IMG/VR virus record: IMGVR_UViG_3300000976_000010
Length of the DNA stretch: 39,311 bases
From: a virus
Strand: one strand, 5' to 3'
The notes beneath the pieces were generated by a model. The model saw only the letters and a list, made by a program, of their open reading frames with translations, searched no databases and was not told where the DNA came from. Made by a program: the position numbers and the translations under genes. This document shows positions 811-38,257 of the stretch, piece by piece (positions within the stretch are counted from its first letter, which is position 1; every line of letters begins with the position of its first letter).

Positions 811-837
811 GGTATTGGTAAACAAAAATTGGAAAAA

Positions 838-1635
838 ATGAAATCATTACAGGAATTAAACGATCTTGTGAACTCAGAGGAAAGCGAAAACATAGAACTA
901 GCCTTGATGCTGTGTGAGAGTCAGGACATAATTTTTGAGGGACTTGATAGTGTGCAGAAATATGTTCCTATCATTAGGTGGTTGAACACTCACCTTGACG
1001 GGTATAATGACATTAAAGAAGGATTGGTGAATGCAATCAATCTGTCATGTCTTAACTTGTGCAATGCAAAAATAGATTCACTTCCCGAATCAATAGGAAC
1101 TTTGAAAAATTTAACATTTCTAGATTTATCCTACAGTACATTAACATCACTTCCCGATTCTATTGGAGATCTAAAAAATTTGACATCGCTCATCATATCC
1201 AATAGCAATTTAAAAAATCTCCCCACTTCAATCGGAAGTTTAACCGAACTCTCAAACCTTTGTTTGTTTGACAATAATTTGGAGGCTTTGCCCGATTCTC
1301 TTTTCAATTTAGAACATTTAGAAAGTCTTGATTTATCAAAAAACCGAATCAATAAAATCCCTGATTCAATCATTAAATTGACAAATTTGACAAATTTGTT
1401 ATTAGAGAAAAATCCAATTCAATTTTTGCCTATAAAAATTTCTGAGTTTAAAAATTTACAATGGCTTGGAATATCAAAATATGAATTGTCCGAAATATCG
1501 ACAAGCGGTACGAACGATGGAAAAAATGATTCTAACAACCCACACGAAAACATGATAGACCTATCAGAACCAACGAAATCCACAGCACTGATAAATTTAA
1601 TAGATAGTGGTTTCGTTTATGTAGATTTGAATTGA
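838..1635 (+). CDS. Leucine-rich repeat protein (6-7 repeats of 23 aa) with a helical N-terminal domain
   Basis: LxxLxLxxNxLxxLPxSIGxLxx repeats. ATG 838 is preferred over TTG 829 because it aligns with the paralogue at 11056. Confidence 0.93.
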   Translation: MKSLQELNDLVNSEESENIELALMLCESQDIIFEGLDSVQKYVPIIRWLNTHLDGYNDIKEGLVNAINLSCLNLCNAKIDSLPESIGTLKNLTFLDLSYSTLTSLPDSIGDLKNLTSLIISNSNLKNLPTSIGSLTELSNLCLFDNNLEALPDSLFNLEHLESLDLSKNRINKIPDSIIKLTNLTNLLLEKNPIQFLPIKISEFKNLQWLGISKYELSEISTSGTNDGKNDSNNPHENMIDLSEPTKSTALINLIDSGFVYVDLN

Positions 1636-11055: not shown

Positions 11056-11310
11056 ATGAAAGAAACATTAGAACACCTAAACGACCTAGTAAACGCAGGA
11101 ACAACCGAAAACATAGAATTAGCCTCTATGCTCTGTGATAGTCAGGGGTTGGTATTTGAAGAACTTGAGAGTGTAGAGAAGTATGTTTCTATTATTAAGC
11201 AGTTGAGCAAATATCTTGATGGGTATGATGGTATTAAGGAGGGCTTGGTTAAGACCACGGATCTAACAGCAGTAGCTCGATTGTGGAACAGGGAAACTAC
11301 GATCTTTTGA
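11056..11310 (+). CDS. LRR-less paralogue of the N-terminal domain of the 838 LRR protein; frame stays open past the TGA to 11409
   Basis: LNDLVN...ENIELA.MLC.SQ...SV.KYV.II..L...LDGY..IKEGLV is shared with 838..1635. Confidence 0.85.
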   Translation: MKETLEHLNDLVNAGTTENIELASMLCDSQGLVFEELESVEKYVSIIKQLSKYLDGYDGIKEGLVKTTDLTAVARLWNRETTIF

Positions 11311-22928: not shown

Positions 22929-23372
22929 TTAAGATATACACGCTTTTAAATATTCCAATTCTGTTTCTAGCTTATCATAAAGATAAATTCTTAATTTTCT
23001 CAGGCTACTAACCGCTTCTTTCTTTGTTGAGTAAACTAAAGCAGGAAGTACATTTAAATCCCAACGTTCAAAGAAAGATAGGAATTTTTCTCCATCAAAA
23101 TCAATAGCCATGAATTTTTTATTTAGGTTGTAATTCCTACCGTCACCTTTTGATACACACTTCCAATAACAATGATTAAGTGCCTTTATTGTATTCTGCT
23201 TCTCTAGTATTTTAGTTGGTGTTATTTGGTAGAAATAAGAATCACCATCATCAATAACCTTTTGAACAATCCCAACAAACATAAAATAGCGATAAACCTT
23301 GTTTGTTGGGCAAACAAGGAAATAAACCTTGTCGTTTGGTTGGTATATCTTTTTATCAAAGAAGCTTATCAT
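22929..23372 (-). CDS. hypothetical protein (SH3/KOW-like N-terminus possible)
   Basis: 147-aa ORF whose start overlaps the end of the upstream gene. Confidence 0.75.
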   Translation of the reverse strand: MISFFDKKIYQPNDKVYFLVCPTNKVYRYFMFVGIVQKVIDDGDSYFYQITPTKILEKQNTIKALNHCYWKCVSKGDGRNYNLNKKFMAIDFDGEKFLSFFERWDLNVLPALVYSTKKEAVSSLRKLRIYLYDKLETELEYLKACIS

Positions 23373-24132
23373 CGCCTTTCATCTTTTTTTCAAACGCCCC
23401 CTTAACTATGGCCTCTACTACAATTAACATGGTTGGTTCATTGACCAAAGCCTTGACATAATCGTTTAATTTAACATCAGGGAACATTTTTAGTAAGTTA
23501 ATAGCAGTGCTTAGGTCAGGAGTTTCACCCTCTTCAAATTCGTTAAGACTTTTTTTGCTTAGTGTTATGACACTTTTTAATTCAGGGTTTGTATTATCCG
23601 ATTCATAAGTTTGTCCCTTACCATTATTATCCGATTCATAAGTTTGTCCCTTACCATTATTATGGGAAGTATCAACTAAAAGGTGATCCGTTTTAATTGG
23701 TGATGTAGTCTCAATAACAACCGTTTCTTCAAAAGGATTTGGAATAGGTTCTACTTTTGGTGTTGGTTTTTCGGCTTGGGAGGACGTTTTGTTTAAATCA
23801 CTTCTCATAACTTTTGTTTTGGGACTGCCCTTCCCAAGTGAATTTTTAAATCCTCCTAAAGTTTTTGAAAGATAGTCTGATACCGAAATTTTTTTTGGGG
23901 GATTACGCATTATCTCATAGTTTTCAAGAAATGAATTTATATCTTTGGGTTGTGCAGGCTCAGACCTTATTATAACCTCCTTTTTAAGTCGATCTACACT
24001 AATAACCTCCACATACCCTACTGATACATTTGAATCTTCAACTCCTATTGGTATAGAATGGTTTATCGGGGCAATTGGAGTCCAAAAAGAACCCTTCACC
24101 AATAAATTATTTTTGTTTAGCATATAGCACAT
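23356..24132 (-). CDS. hypothetical protein with a low-complexity linker
   Basis: 258-aa ORF; Pro/Thr-rich middle containing an exact 11-aa duplication. Confidence 0.8.
   Translation of the reverse strand: MCYMLNKNNLLVKGSFWTPIAPINHSIPIGVEDSNVSVGYVEVISVDRLKKEVIIRSEPAQPKDINSFLENYEIMRNPPKKISVSDYLSKTLGGFKNSLGKGSPKTKVMRSDLNKTSSQAEKPTPKVEPIPNPFEETVVIETTSPIKTDHLLVDTSHNNGKGQTYESDNNGKGQTYESDNTNPELKSVITLSKKSLNEFEEGETPDLSTAINLLKMFPDVKLNDYVKALVNEPTMLIVVEAIVKGAFEKKMKGDDKLL
23592..23663. repeat. Perfect 33-bp tandem duplication (about 2.2 copies)
   Basis: TATTATCCGATTCATAAGTTTGTCCCTTACCAT at 23592-23624 and 23625-23657, then TATTAT; encodes NNGKGQTYESD twice. Confidence 0.95.
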
Positions 24133-25806: not shown

Positions 25807-26118
25807 TTAGTCCTCAAATACTTTGTTGGTGTCATAAAGGTTGTTGGGAAGCGGAGTGTATTTATTATTAAACGATTCAAGTTGGCGTGATATATTAACC
25901 ATCTTCACATGTCTCCTATTAGCCATTGCCTTGCAGGATTCTACTATTTCATCTACTAGGTTAATATCATGCCCCTGTTTTATCGTTACGATTTCATCCT
26001 CGTTTTCAACAATAGCCCTATATTGTTTTCCGAACTTCAATTCTATTGTGACATCATATATTTCGGCCAATTGTCTTATATTTGTAATGCTTATTTTTTT
26101 TAGATCCCGCTTTTTCAT
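25807..26118 (-). CDS. hypothetical protein
   Basis: ORF track 25807..26169; ATG 26118 (MKKRDLKK) has the A-rich leader. Confidence 0.7.
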   Translation of the reverse strand: MKKRDLKKISITNIRQLAEIYDVTIELKFGKQYRAIVENEDEIVTIKQGHDINLVDEIVESCKAMANRRHVKMVNISRQLESFNNKYTPLPNNLYDTNKVFED

Positions 26119-26278
26119 TTTTATTATTTTCTGAATTAATAGTCTCATTAACCCTTGTCTCAAATTCATCCCTTAGTGGTGTCCCCACTTTTCCATAACG
26201 CAAATCTAGCAAATCGTCAAATTTTTCAATTCCTGCTAAGTTTTCGGGTGTCAGATGTGTTGGTTTATTTTTATCCAT
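26054..26278 (-). CDS. Small protein resembling the N-terminus of Bacteroidota HigA/XRE antitoxins, without the HTH
   Basis: FDDLLDLRYGKVGTPLRDEFE motif; no HTH follows. Confidence 0.6.
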   Translation of the reverse strand: MDKNKPTHLTPENLAGIEKFDDLLDLRYGKVGTPLRDEFETRVNETINSENNKNEKAGSKKNKHYKYKTIGRNI

Positions 26279-26316
26279 TGTTTTATTTTATGATTATTAA
26301 TAGACTCATTAAATTC

Positions 26317-26475
26317 CTACAAAAATGTGTCATCCTTTTCCAAAAATTTATTTATAGCCTCTATCTGCTCTTCCAACGCCATGTCATTCAAATCGAGTAC
26401 AGGAATCATATCTTTGCGTAATGTTATATCATGACGCGTGTATAAATTCCTGTTGTATGCAATTAAAAAAGACAT
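26317..26475 (-). CDS. hypothetical protein (52 aa)
   Basis: Read by hand: MSFLIAYNRNLYTRHDITLRKDMIPVLDLNDMALEEQIEAINKFLEKDDTFL; starts inside a cassette-junction-like site. Confidence 0.45.
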   Translation of the reverse strand: MSFLIAYNRNLYTRHDITLRKDMIPVLDLNDMALEEQIEAINKFLEKDDTFL

Positions 26476-26606
26476 ACAACAATAAATATAAGTAATAGTG
26501 GTCGTTTGGAACGCCTAAGCCAATTAACATTCGTTAGGCTATGCAAGCGCACTTGCCGAATGATACTGTTTGAACCACTACTACTCATATTCTTTGCCGT
26601 TAATGG
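26473..26606 (-). other. attC-like / Flavo-1-like structured element
   Basis: Minus strand: CATTAAC-N7-AATATGAGTAGTAGTGGT...ACCACTATTACTTATATT-N4-GTTGTATG. 18-bp stem (26574-26591 with 26485-26502) containing two G-T/G-U pairs and internal hairpins. Confidence 0.7.
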
Positions 26607-26824
26607 TTAGACTGAATACCTTTTTGGATCTTGAATAATTTTGTAAGTAAAACTATCGTGTATAGTAGACCAACCTTCTTTAAGCATAAAATCGCTCAAG
26701 GTGCTAAAACTTTGTTCGTCTGTGATAATGTTATTTTGATGTTCTTGTGGTTTGATTTTTCTTGTTTTTTTATATAAATTATTAGAATCATTAAATTCCT
26801 ATTAAAGCACGTCCTTCCACCAAA

Positions 26825-27058
26825 CTAAGAAACTATTTTGTATTTCTTGTAAAAAAAGTGTACCGCTTCCCTGTCTTCTGTAATATAGTCCATTATATTC
26901 TCCGCATCTACATCGGTTACTTCATTAAATGCTTCTTCTCTTGTAATTCCGTAGTTTCGCGCAATTCCGTCAAGTATTTCATTCATTAGTTTAGTACTTA
27001 GCGACATCAAGAAATTGGCGGTGTCTGCTTTCATTGTATAAGGATTGGTAATTGTCAT
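26825..27058 (-). CDS. hypothetical early protein
   Basis: 77-aa ORF behind a consensus promoter. Confidence 0.8.
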   Translation of the reverse strand: MTITNPYTMKADTANFLMSLSTKLMNEILDGIARNYGITREEAFNEVTDVDAENIMDYITEDREAVHFFYKKYKIVS

Positions 27059-27101
27059 GTCTTATGATTGTTTATAACTAGGCTTATGTGCTTTCGATAC
27101 T

Positions 27102-27133
27102 CAAATATAAGACAATTCCCGATTCCTTGCAAA
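27102..27133 (-). promoter_or_regulatory. Consensus Bacteroidota sigma70 promoter
   Basis: TTTG-N20-TATATTTG on the minus strand. Confidence 0.8.
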
Positions 27134-27174
27134 TATTTAGCTACTTATTTTATTTTAATTGAGACTCGACCAAA

Positions 27175-27405
27175 TCAATAAGTAACAAATTCAAATTCGT
27201 CTTCCAATAAATCTAAGCACCTAATCACCTTTATGCCTCTGTACTTCATATTTTGTTCGTAAAGGTTAATGGACATGCCACCATTATTGGATATTTCTTT
27301 TACAAGATCACACCATGTTTGTGGATGTAATAAAATAAGCCTTGGAATTCTTTTCGATTCCATAAATGCGCTACGCATTCTGTTCTCCAATTTTTATTGT
27401 ATCAT
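27175..27405 (-). pseudogene. small gene with an in-frame TAA at codon 4 (may still be expressed from TTG 27390 or an internal ATG)
   Basis: ATG ATA CAA TAA AAA TTG GAG AAC...; the ATG at 27405 is in frame with the 71-aa ORF. Confidence 0.55.
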
Positions 27406-27417
27406 AGTATTTATTTT

Positions 27418-27675
27418 TTAACACGAAAGGGTTCTATATTCAACATCAAGTTCAATTAGTTTGAGTCTAACACCAAGATTAAAACCTGTAAATTCAGGAG
27501 TACATATAACCAATTCCAATCCGTCAAAATTTATAGACTCATAATTAGCCACTTTTATTAGGAACCTCGCCACCTCTTTTACATCCTCCCCCTTGTCGCA
27601 TTCTTCCTTTTCTAATCGAATTATTTGTTTGTCAAGCTGTTTCTTATTGATTACTAACATAGGCACATAACTCAT
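27418..27675 (-). CDS. hypothetical protein
   Basis: 85-aa ORF in the array. Confidence 0.75.
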   Translation of the reverse strand: MSYVPMLVINKKQLDKQIIRLEKEECDKGEDVKEVARFLIKVANYESINFDGLELVICTPEFTGFNLGVRLKLIELDVEYRTLSC

Positions 27676-27739
27676 ACTTTAGTCTTTTTTTTAATAACAG
27701 TCATTAATCAATACTCGCTGTCGTTTATTATAAAATATT

Positions 27740-28222
27740 CTAAATTTCTTCACCTCGTCCATCAAAAATTACGATCATAGAATCGTGCATACCGCTATTT
27801 TTTACCAAAGGCATCCCAATGGGCGGAATTCTATCCCAAAGATGCCAATTAACCGCTTCGTCTTTGCTATTGATGCCTATAAATTTAACTCTACCCCTTA
27901 AAAATCTTATGTCTGACGAATTGGGTAATATATGCTCATGGAATAATAATGTAGAAGTGCTAACAGGAATTAACATAACACAAAGTCTACCCTTTTTTGA
28001 TTCCTCAATTGCCTTTTTAACAAAAAGTTCCTTAAGTTTCCTTCTATATGGAGGATTGATAAAGTTTCTTTCTTTCCAATCAATTTTTAGACCATCCCAA
28101 TCATTTATATTGTGCATGTATGGGCAAGGGTCAAAATTAAAATTGAATTCGTTATTGAGCTGTTGCAATAATTGGGGGGGGGTAGCCCAATCATCTCTGT
28201 GATCCAAGTTTCTGTTTTTCAT
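27740..28222 (-). CDS. Phage Dam-family DNA N6-adenine methyltransferase
   Basis: DDWATP, FNFDPCP, DGLKIDW, FINPPY (motif IV), VMLIP, IRFLRGRVKF. Confidence 0.9.
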   Translation of the reverse strand: MKNRNLDHRDDWATPPQLLQQLNNEFNFNFDPCPYMHNINDWDGLKIDWKERNFINPPYRRKLKELFVKKAIEESKKGRLCVMLIPVSTSTLLFHEHILPNSSDIRFLRGRVKFIGINSKDEAVNWHLWDRIPPIGMPLVKNSGMHDSMIVIFDGRGEEI

Positions 28223-28282
28223 AATTATTTGTTTATTTCGTGACTTTAGTCTTTCAATTTTACGTACCCAAAATGCTAAACG

Positions 28283-28657
28283 TTAGTACTCATAGTCAAC
28301 ACCAAGCAATATTATATCTACAGATTCAGAGTAGTACCCGTTGCTTTCGCCAAACCATCTAATATCCACATAGCCTTTAATTGTTGCGAATTTATAATAA
28401 GTCCAAGTACAAGAACCATAGTCTTCCGCCTCTTTACTTCTTTGAATATCTTCTTTTGAAGTTGGTTCGTAATTTGAAACTTCTTCGGCTTTTAATATTG
28501 GGCTTCCAACCAAATACTGTAAATCGCCAACTATATCTTCAATGGTCACGCTTTCGCAGCAATATTGTCCGTGATACATTTTATATTTATTTCCATCTTC
28601 GCAAGCAAATATTATATAGTCATTATCACTGTTTCTACTTTGGTAAGTTTTTACCAA
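28283..28657 (-). CDS. Conserved phage hypothetical protein (CCES...GESNGYYSE family) with a damaged 5' end
   Basis: [56 protein letters not shown]. No proper ATG; upstream frames appear shifted. Confidence 0.7.
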
Positions 28658-28711
28658 TCAACCCTTTTAATCTTTACAACTTATTTAATATTTTAATAGC
28701 GTTATAGCCAA

Positions 28712-29002
28712 TTAAATATATTCTTCAATTTCAAAGTCATCATTCACTTTAGCTATATCTTTGCAGATTTGCTCAAATGTCTTACTGTTCAAATCATCAA
28801 GTTGCTCTTTTGTAGTTATGTAAATAAATCCGTCAAGTCCTTCAAGACTATCGCATTTGGTAGGTTTATTTCCGCATACCGTTAAGCAGCTTAATTCAAG
28901 TCCATTTTTTAATGTGTAATTGTTTTGTACATCATCCCAATCAGGTCTGTTTGTTGTTTTTTCAAACCCGTAACTTTCAATAATTTCTAATGTTAAATCC
29001 AT
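28712..29002 (-). CDS. hypothetical protein
   Basis: 96-aa ORF; LT.EI...YGF start typical of small phage proteins. Confidence 0.8.
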   Translation of the reverse strand: MDLTLEIIESYGFEKTTNRPDWDDVQNNYTLKNGLELSCLTVCGNKPTKCDSLEGLDGFIYITTKEQLDDLNSKTFEQICKDIAKVNDDFEIEEYI

Positions 29003-29067
29003 AATTCGTTTTTCTGTTTAATAAAAGGATTTATAATATTGTAATGACTTAATATCTCAGAATGGGG

Positions 29068-29331
29068 TTACTCTTCATGCTCTTTTAACGCTTCCTCTAC
29101 CTTGGCTAACTCCTCCTTCATTTTGTCACGTTGGGTTATATTAAGTGCTGTTAAAATAACTATAAATTCTCTTTCTTTAAGGAATTCATTATAAGTATTG
29201 AATAACCCCGTATCCTTCCAATCATTAATTCCTTCAAGTTGATAATCGAATTCAATTGCCATGCTTTCGTGGTGATCTACACACTTCTTTATACTATCCC
29301 TCTTAGCTGTTAAATATTGCTTTTGGTTCAT
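29068..29331 (-). CDS. hypothetical coiled-coil protein
   Basis: 87-aa ORF in the array. Confidence 0.75.
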   Translation of the reverse strand: MNQKQYLTAKRDSIKKCVDHHESMAIEFDYQLEGINDWKDTGLFNTYNEFLKEREFIVILTALNITQRDKMKEELAKVEEALKEHEE

Positions 29332-29379
29332 AAGTTGAATTGGTTTTAAAATGTAATTTTATAAAAGTAATAAATAATA

Positions 29380-29586
29380 CTACCTGTATCGTTTATAAAC
29401 TTCATTATATACAGCATCGGCAATTCTCATAGCATCAACTGTATCGTCTAACATACCTTCTGCCATTTCTTCACATTCTTTTAAGGTCTTGTAAGGTTCA
29501 TTAATACACCATTTTCTCCAAAAAAAAGGCTCGATGTTATTTTTAAACCTTATCTGCAAGTACCATCTTTGTTGTTCGTTTTTCAT
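29380..29586 (-). CDS. hypothetical protein
   Basis: 68-aa ORF in the array. Confidence 0.7.
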   Translation of the reverse strand: MKNEQQRWYLQIRFKNNIEPFFWRKWCINEPYKTLKECEEMAEGMLDDTVDAMRIADAVYNEVYKRYR

Positions 29587-29594
29587 AATCCGTA

Positions 29595-29900
29595 TTATTT
29601 TCCACTGTTATACTTAGCGTTAGCAACAGCCCAATTTATATTAAATACATAATCATTATACTCTTTATGTCTTTGCCTTAAATGGGATAAACAACTACTG
29701 CTTTTGCTTATTATTTCACTAGGAGCATCGTTATCAATCAACCAATTTAAGTGCTCATTTTCCCTTTCGGCCATTTCCAAAAGTCTAGATATTAGATGTT
29801 GTTTCATCTGTTCTTTAAATGAAAGGCAGTTGCTAACACTATCTATAGCACATTTCTTTTCCTTCCCCCCTTCACCAAATATTCTTTTAATACAAGTCAC
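29595..29900 (-). CDS. hypothetical protein spanning two cassette-junction-like sites
   Basis: 101-aa ORF; AIDSVSNC and WAVAN are encoded by an inverted-repeat pair. Confidence 0.6.
   Translation of the reverse strand: MTCIKRIFGEGGKEKKCAIDSVSNCLSFKEQMKQHLISRLLEMAERENEHLNWLIDNDAPSEIISKSSSCLSHLRQRHKEYNDYVFNINWAVANAKYNSGK
29619..29837. repeat. 219-bp cassette-like segment bounded by a 12/13 inverted repeat
   Basis: GTTAGCAACAGCC (29619-29631) and GGCAGTTGCTAAC (29825-29837). Confidence 0.75.
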
Positions 29901-30127
29901 TTGTTTAAGTTTTGTTTGTTCTTAAATACATACAGCAGATGAAAATGTGTATATTGCATAGCCTATCAACATAAGCAGCATACACAATGCGTTATACCCT
30001 GTTTTGGTGCTTCCTAGCATTCGCAACAAGGTAAAAATAGCACTAAAAGACATCGTTGACTGCAATTCCCCTAGCTTTTAAATGTACTTATTCTATTCAT
30101 CTGTCACTTTTATATCTCGGCATACAC

Positions 30128-31869: not shown

Positions 31870-32205
31870 CTAAAAATCATCACTTTCAAGAATTCTTAAA
31901 AGACTTCCATCAACATCCAAACGACCACTATTATACCAATCCCCTAAACCATACCAACCACCACAAACTGTCCTTGCAAATGTTCCACATTCGCCATTTT
32001 CCCCCTCAATAGTTGATATAAAGAAGTCAGTGCTTTTCGCGAAAATCCAAGGACACTCGCTTCTTTTAATGAGCCACATATTTATAATATTACTGTCTGC
32101 TATATCAAAAGGTATCACCTCGCTAACTTTCACGCTGTACATTCTAGAATAGCTAATCTTTCCATCATCAAAGCAATAGTATATTTCTTTTTCTTTCGGT
32201 ATCAT
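31870..32205 (-). CDS. conserved phage hypothetical protein
   Basis: Y.CFDDGKI..SR, FART..GGWY, GRLDVDGSL. Confidence 0.8.
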   Translation of the reverse strand: MIPKEKEIYYCFDDGKISYSRMYSVKVSEVIPFDIADSNIINMWLIKRSECPWIFAKSTDFFISTIEGENGECGTFARTVCGGWYGLGDWYNSGRLDVDGSLLRILESDDF

Positions 32206-32842: not shown

Positions 32843-32894
32843 ATATACAAAAATAGCTCGACAATTAAAAATATGTCGAGCTATTTTTGTATAT
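32843..32894. terminator. 21-bp perfect inverted repeat (terminator or operator)
   Basis: ATATACAAAAATAGCTCGACA / TGTCGAGCTATTTTTGTATAT, 10-nt loop, intergenic. Confidence 0.75.
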
Positions 32895-37343: not shown

Positions 37344-37414
37344 ATTATTAAACGATTATTTTTTTTTTGCGTTATTATGACCTATTGATTAATTTTTAAA
37401 TTAAAACTATCCTT

Positions 37415-38257
37415 ATGAAAAAGGTTAAGGGGTTATCAGGTAACAAACCACCTGAAAAAATTACAGTTCCAACCGAAGCTACAACGGCCGATGATATGCT
37501 TTTTAGCAAAAAACCATTACATGAACACACCATCGAAGAGTTAGAAGATAAATTGGTTCGATATGATGCAGCGTTGTATAATATGGTGTACGAAATACCC
37601 AAAAGCACCAAGACAATTGTTGGGCGCATGGTTGACCAATTAGGAAAGTCTATCAAAGGATTGGGTTTGGCTGATGCGGAATCTGTGTGGTTTTTGAAAC
37701 TAAAGTTGTCGGGAAATTCCTTTACGTGTATCAGTGACCATAATCTTCATAAAAGTGATTATTTCAAAAATAATTCCGTTGAAGCAATCGGCTTTGGCGA
37801 GAAAGAAGTAGGAGAATCCACAAAATTCTATTATAAAGTATCTTCAAGTAATGTTCAATTATTAACCAAAACCGCGAACACATTAAGCGAAAAGGGAGGC
37901 GTGGATGTTTACTATAAAAACGGCTCAAGCAGCGATAATTTATTTTTGGACATGTTGGATTTGCGGATTATGCAAACTATGATGTCACATTACGAACTAG
38001 ATAGTCAGACCTGTGAATCTGCTGCTTCATGGGTAAAGCATTTCGAGGTGGCAAATATTTCAATTTATAAGTTGCATACTGCCATTAAACAAGCTACCTC
38101 ACTTCTAAAAGAGAAACGAGCAGAAGTTAGCGCACAGATGCAATTGGATAAAATTGCTCATAAAGGCGGAAAAGAGGGATTTACTGTAGATGAAATGGCA
38201 GCAAAAACACTAGATAAAGAAAAGGCTGTCCTAGTACCTGTTCAGGATGATAAGTAG
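37415..38257 (+). CDS. hypothetical protein
   Basis: 280-aa ORF, divergent from the ATPase operon. Confidence 0.85.
   Translation: MKKVKGLSGNKPPEKITVPTEATTADDMLFSKKPLHEHTIEELEDKLVRYDAALYNMVYEIPKSTKTIVGRMVDQLGKSIKGLGLADAESVWFLKLKLSGNSFTCISDHNLHKSDYFKNNSVEAIGFGEKEVGESTKFYYKVSSSNVQLLTKTANTLSEKGGVDVYYKNGSSSDNLFLDMLDLRIMQTMMSHYELDSQTCESAASWVKHFEVANISIYKLHTAIKQATSLLKEKRAEVSAQMQLDKIAHKGGKEGFTVDEMAAKTLDKEKAVLVPVQDDK

Follow-up and report, generated by a model that had tools for sequence, protein, structure and literature searches.

A strand-asymmetric hairpin element between small ORFan genes of an uncultured jumbo phage is a candidate structured RNA module

RNase III processing hairpins lie between the early genes of phage T7; these are simple, contain an internal loop and recur along the genome. 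ERIC, a palindromic intergenic unit, is similar to the Correia elements of Neisseria. These Correia repeat-enclosed elements, as PMC2649163 describes them, span ~100-150 bp, consist of inverted repeats around a conserved core and are co-transcribed with their neighbours, the RNA hairpin being a substrate or a binding site of RNase III. In T4-type phages, promoter-early stem-loop (PeSL) cassettes are defined by a strong sigma-70-type promoter and are present at ~50 per genome (Arbiol et al, 2010; PMC2839356).

Here we analyse a stretch of 39,311 nt (the window), which belongs to a 148,449-nt contig of an uncultured jumbo phage and encodes a phage-type Dam methylase, PHROG families, LRR proteins and very large virion-type ORFs. 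Between ~25.8 and 37.3 kb the minus strand carries all plausible genes, mostly small ORFans, and within this block a ~350-nt stretch without a convincing gene, extending from ORF 26825..27058 (77 aa) to ORF 26317..26475 (52 aa), contains a hairpin element of 125 nt (26476..26600, minus strand). With the PeSLs it shares a stem-loop with G-T pairs, a stop-to-ATG intergenic unit and ORFan flanks, and a direct repeat of ~55 nt brackets the unit, as recombining PeSLs would be bracketed. In contrast to PeSLs, there is no sigma-70-like site in 26476-26600 and no TAnnTTTG-type box common to the element and its only homologue (see below); the element is single-copy in 39 kb and has a 70-nt multi-hairpin core in place of a simple G/C stem-loop. 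Since it lacks a promoter and is single-copy, it falls outside the PeSL definition.

The ORF directly downstream of the outer helix (26317..26475, minus strand) encodes a 52-aa ORFan without homologue among 1.8 billion representatives. No relatives of the proteins neighbouring the element were found in IMG/VR, and the AAA ATPase of the window has a single relative, at 41% identity, outside IMG/VR. ARAGORN detected no tRNA or tmRNA, relaxed thresholds yielding only one meaningless call. The upstream copy of the ~55-nt direct repeat lies at 26745..26801 (minus strand) and its partner at 26262-26319 (score 55 versus 22.5 ± 3.3 for shuffled sequences). With the core TAGGAATTTAATGAnTCTAnTAATAAT, the repeat is present in only two copies in the window, which enclose the hairpin element together with the 52-aa ORF, and the second copy extends into the start of ORF 26054..26278. 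Such a layout would be expected for a unit gained or duplicated via recombination between similar intergenic leaders. We also considered 26607-26800 as a decayed paralogue of ORF 26054..26278 and rejected this because BLASTP returned nothing and only the ~55-nt DNA repeat was supported.

Beside the element, a 27-mer at 26631-26657 (plus strand) is 85% identical to 37385-37411, just before the ATG of gene 37415..38257; the pair may represent a plus-strand start region, or chance in AT-rich DNA. An exact 33-nt tandem duplication (23592-23657) in ORF 23356..24132 (minus strand) amounts to an in-frame duplication of 11 residues. Finally, a 190-nt direct repeat links 842-1031 to 11063-11252 at 74% identity; its first copy lies in the LRR gene 829..1635, and the other may be a remnant of an LRR gene because it is located where there is no ORF of at least 90 aa.

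Folded as RNA of the minus strand, the hairpin element consists, by the fold and its pair list, of an outer helix of 27-28 bp around a core of 69-71 nt. The 5' arm of the helix (26573..26600, minus strand) comprises a conserved 15-bp part (26574-26588) and an extension found in this phage only (26589-26600), and the 3' arm (26476..26503, minus strand) is correspondingly divided into a conserved part (26488-26502) and an extension (26476-26487), stopping one base ahead of the ATG of ORF 26317..26475. RNAfold places six G.U wobbles and one A.A mismatch in this minus-strand helix. The original prediction, made from the letters of the window, had described an outer stem of 18 bp with two G.U pairs; this stem is present, but it is the middle of the longer helix. 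That its wobbles pair on the minus strand only holds for the helix as a whole, every one of them being an A.C on the plus strand. The 12-bp lower extension pairs at 11 of its 12 positions, three of them G.U, although it is built from flanking sequence that is not homologous to that of the other copy, which hints that RNA pairing may be selected for in this phage.

The core opens with an unpaired 5' junction, CAAACAGUAU (26563..26572, minus strand), which is the same in both copies, followed by CAUUCG (26557..26562, minus strand), the 5' arm of a candidate pseudoknot helix that is stacked directly on the hairpin GCAAG-UGCG-CUUGC (26543..26556, minus strand). In the homologue, the loop of this hairpin reads UGCA and its closing G-C is replaced by G.U. 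A second hairpin, GCCUAA/UUAGGC (26513..26539, minus strand; arms 26539-26534 and 26518-26513), encloses a 15-nt loop that contains CGAAUG (26528..26533, minus strand), the 3' arm of the candidate pseudoknot helix. The 3' junction, GUUCCAAACG (26503..26512, minus strand), is the most variable part, with four of its 10 bases differing in the homologue. Read on the minus strand, the inner stem sequences of the original prediction all lie where it had put them, including the placement of the 3' partner of CATTCG within the loop of the GCCTAA hairpin (26533-26528).

If CAUUCG paired with CGAAUG, an H-type knot would result, and its loop lengths of 17, 0 and 9 nt are sterically acceptable. In the window copy, the energies of the two nested alternatives are -25.6 and -29.2 kcal/mol, and by our estimate a 6-bp complement is expected by chance about half the time in a core of 71 nt. 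As both arms are identical in both copies, they provide no covariation by which to judge the pairing, and we regard the pseudoknot as possible.

The stability of the fold was compared with that of shuffled sequences on both strands. As minus-strand RNA the element folds with -47.3 kcal/mol (z -5.5), a value that none of 200 shuffles attained, compared with -32.0 kcal/mol (z -2.0) for plus-strand RNA; DNA folds of the element gave -19.6 (z -2.3) and -15.8 (z -1.3). Among 3918 sliding segments of 140 nt, covering both strands of the whole 39 kb (mean -20.7, sd 5.8), the element ranks first in stability (residual z after GC correction, -4.6). The minus-strand fold therefore exceeds chance and is strand-asymmetric, as had been proposed, and from the shuffle z-scores together with the rank among the 140-nt segments we take the structure to be real and unusual. 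The wobbles are biased likewise, with six wobbles and zero A.C on the sense strand of the window copy; in the homologue there are three wobbles versus one A.C. The homologous copy folds alike on both strands (-26.8 versus -26.5) and hence has no strand bias in energy; in the window, the 12-bp lower extension of the helix accounts for much of the bias.

Within 26440-30070 there are no further strong folds except a moderate one at ~29940. A 228-nt gap between minus-strand ORFs (29901-30127) has a minus-strand fold of -36.7 kcal/mol; all that it has in common with the element is a 12-mer (29953-29964), which was dismissed as chance level. The second most stable fold of the window, at 32843-32894, is formed by a perfect inverted repeat of 21 bp around a 10-nt loop; it resembles a two-way terminator, and the gap between minus-strand genes in which it lies measures 380 nt. 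Strong strand bias also occurs inside a coding region, at 31881-31951 in ORF 31870..32205, where the minus strand folds with -33 to -37 kcal/mol and the plus strand with -8 to -20.

Because the neighbouring proteins are without relatives, the element itself was searched for via DNA patterns. A scan of metagenomes with one pattern, GCCTAACGAATG-N5-12-TTAGGC, returned 52 loci, of which 51 were chance matches and one was a true homologue, situated on a 1027-nt JGI metagenome contig (L028). The homology covers a block of 101 nt (26488..26588, minus strand) that is 89.1% identical with 11 differences, between flanks that are unrelated; outside the block identity drops at once to the random level, and the limits of the block are those of the upper 15 bp of the outer helix. 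Comparing the contig with the 39-kb window by blastn gave 88% identity over 108 nt (E 3e-34) and no other similarity. The genes of the two contigs are unrelated as well. The homologous element is also sense-oriented and fills the gap between two small same-strand ORFan genes; on that contig, ATGA overlaps couple the genes, and a plus-strand terminator lies after them. Neither a promoter nor a terminator is conserved along with the element. The 83-aa protein encoded next to the homologue (116-364 of that contig) has no relatives in IMG/VR and belongs to a cluster of 22 members at 90% identity, which are encoded on ENA/Logan contigs as long as 20 kb. The ENA/Logan contigs with relatives of this gene probably carry additional copies of the element.

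Searches of other collections returned only chance-level matches or none. At gathering thresholds Rfam gave no match over the window, and at E ≤10 only chance-level hits; the best of these were microRNA-precursor models matching only the long hairpin, with no family reaching E 0.5, so the Infernal search suggested for the original prediction assigned the element to no known family. By blastn, neither the region nor the element matched GenBank phages or PLSDB plasmids. IMG/VR, searched with two DNA patterns and once with a translated frame, yielded only chance matches in coding regions, and six chance matches came from scanning one genome per GTDB species with a pattern. A covariance model built from the two copies and run without filters on the window found no second copy in the 39 kb, the next match being a generic perfect hairpin at 32.8 kb. 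It likewise found nothing in the 151 genomes searched from the phylum of one chance match, which is probably not Bacteroidota, so that this result is uninformative, and nothing in four IMG/VR records. A match of this model in Tenacibaculum phage PTm1 (19 bits; none in pT24) was rejected, as it lies inside a helicase gene. The original prediction had presented the element as the best-preserved member of a site family; since the covariance model finds only this element in the window, such a family has no support here.

The 11 differences between the two copies affect five of the 32 proposed pairs, and four of the five changed pairs still pair. One change is compensatory (G-C to A-U), two are wobble-compatible (G.U to A-U and G-C to G.U), and one breaks a pair (A-U to A.C); the six remaining changes are unpaired and fall in the hairpin loop, in the loop between the pseudoknot arms and, four of them, in the 3' junction. 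GCCUAA, CGAAUG and UUAGGC were preset by the search pattern, so that their identity in the homologue is uninformative. The 5' junction and CAUUCG are identical as well, and CAUUCG was not required by the pattern; the other conserved block is made up of the junction CAAACAGUAU and CAUUCGGCAAG. Once the pattern-fixed bases are set aside, the long identical blocks are not significant (P ~0.1 by our estimate). In a covariation analysis, proposed as a check of the original prediction, most changes in stems keep the pairing, but with a single homologue this carries no statistical weight, 271 of 500 shuffles being as good.

As the 101-base core recurs at 89% identity in an unrelated contig, a small structured RNA module is probable here, and not an integron-type site. 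In its full form, to which we assign a probability of roughly 50%, this reading holds that the element is a self-contained structured RNA module of the sense strand, with the conserved core as its working part and a helix that is here long enough for processing of the RNase III type. The original prediction had left open whether the element is a folded single-stranded DNA recombination site or a structured RNA, and it is the RNA half that is favoured by the strand asymmetry, the confinement of homology to the element, the sense setting, the changes that keep pairing and the lack of a coding signal.

According to this model, a non-coding module of ~101 nt would act as a folded RNA on the sense (minus) strand and would be transcribed within the leftward block of small ORFan genes. 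A long helix would close the compact core, with 15 conserved base pairs lengthened here to 27-28 bp by flanking bases that pair through G.U. The core, a UNCG-type hairpin and a second hairpin with possibly an H-type pseudoknot between them, would be the functional part, presumably recognised by a partner, with the outer helix as its clamp. At 27-28 bp, the helix in the window reaches the ~two turns (at least 20 bp) of near-perfect double-stranded RNA that a double-strand-specific RNase of the RNase III type could cut; cleavage there would set the neighbouring cistrons apart and either free the core or stabilise it. The helix of the homologue, with 15 bp and an A.C mismatch, is too short for a typical RNase III site. 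Because the module occurs in unrelated gene contexts, we infer that phage genomes have exchanged it as one unit.

The main rival is a small palindromic mobile DNA element, MITE-like and of the Correia or ERIC kind, in which a 101-bp unit with 15-bp terminal inverted repeats would be moved by a transposase or by recombination, and any RNA fold would follow incidentally from the inverted repeats. In its favour, the block shared with the homologue is delimited exactly by the 15-bp inverted repeat, with unrelated contexts and 89% identity, and the size and layout (inverted repeat plus conserved core) fit Correia elements as PMC2649163 characterises them. Yet there is one copy in 39 kb, the patterns used found none in IMG/VR, GenBank phages, plasmids or one genome per GTDB species, the borders of the two copies have no consistent target-site duplication or common direct repeat, and the window encodes no transposase. 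The ends bound by a transposase are usually the best-kept part of mobile elements, whereas here the inverted repeats hold four of the 11 changes, and the wobble bias favours one strand. We consider this origin unlikely; the structured RNA and the mobile DNA readings are not mutually exclusive.

Less probable still is a site for a protein that binds double-stranded DNA at the inverted repeat, such as an operator, an origin or a replication-initiation site. The conservation of the inverted repeat at the DNA level and the equal folding of both strands in the homologue would agree with it. However, a dimeric DNA binder needs no conserved, non-palindromic core of 71 bp, the helix extension depends on G.U pairs that are meaningless in duplex DNA, and no candidate gene for a binding protein is linked to the element in both contexts; we therefore regard this as improbable.

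Since an ATG opens the homology block in both copies, we also considered a small protein gene of 38-41 codons. From the same ATG, a frame is open through the element in the window (ORF 26463..26588, 41 aa) and in the homologue (385..501 of L028, 38 aa), but its pN/pS is ~1 (0.112/0.109), with eight of 34 residues changed, from which we conclude that the element is not coding. Such a gene would moreover need an inverted repeat of 15-28 bp joining its ends, and no protein of this frame is on record among 5.8 billion, the window's own contig included, so that a coding function is highly improbable. A translational bypass across the element was also rejected: 134 nt separate the flanking ORFs, which do not share a frame, and the one landing codon that matches opens into a frame of 13 codons.

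Largely refuted is a folded single-stranded DNA recombination site of the integron attC kind, one of a family bounding gene cassettes in a phage array: the element resembles attC sites in its size, in being an imperfect palindrome with one better-folding strand, in its position between small ORFan genes and in the AAC and GTT triplets near its base, but its basal 7-mers CATTAAC and GTTGTAT do not fit RYYYAAC/GTTRRRY, the better-folding strand is gene-sense and not the bottom strand, the sole unpaired position of the helix is a symmetric A.A without extrahelical bases, the window's ORFs of at least 90 aa contain no recombinase, integrase or tyrosine recombinase domain (Pfam), and the covariance model detects no further member in the window. 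The flanks that had been read as AAC-N7 and N4-GTT do exist (AAC at 26601-26599, GTT at 26480-26478), but the two triplets are not partners in the helix and both are missing from the homologue. Without complementary R''/R' boxes or an integrase, as a single copy and with flanks that are not conserved, the recombination-site half of the original prediction fails, and with it the main support for an integron-like cassette system in this phage array is removed.

Returning to the structured RNA module, the two copies might be the first examples of a class of pseudoknotted phage RNAs, so far undescribed, with a specific molecular partner, a self-contained cassette that would travel between the plastic early regions of Bacteroidota jumbo phages. 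This extension is tentative, as are the roles it could imply, for example a small ribozyme, a protein- or defence-decoy RNA or a ligand sensor. To our knowledge, Bacteroidota jumbo phages have hardly been explored, and ORFans without understood regulation crowd their early regions. If the structured RNA reading is true, a mobile, strand-specific folded module would provide a handle on the processing and insulation of early transcripts in these phages, and would also inform how phages exchange non-coding parts. With two copies the case is modest, and it becomes interesting only if more homologues covary or the RNA has an activity.

In comparison with the other known systems, the element has the size range and the inverted repeats around a conserved core of Correia elements, which are, as described in PMC2649163, bacterial, present in tens to hundreds of copies and accompanied by TA duplications and IHF sites, none of which is seen here. 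By the features of MITE-like elements, terminal inverted repeats are found at the limits of homology, whereas target-site duplication and dispersed copies are not. From attC sites the element differs in lacking their defining boxes, extrahelical bases and bottom-strand polarity, and the window contains neither an integrase nor an array of such sites. Like the RNase III sites of T7, it places an intercistronic helix of at least 20 bp between a stop and a start codon; its conserved helix, in contrast, is only 15 bp and encloses a complex core. By our own comparison it also differs from HDV-like folds, the arms being ordered a-hairpin-b-a'-b' in the element and a-b-hairpin-a'-hairpin-b' in HDV-like folds, and with the self-cleaving ribozymes and riboswitches of Rfam it has in common a closing helix around a compact, possibly pseudoknotted core.
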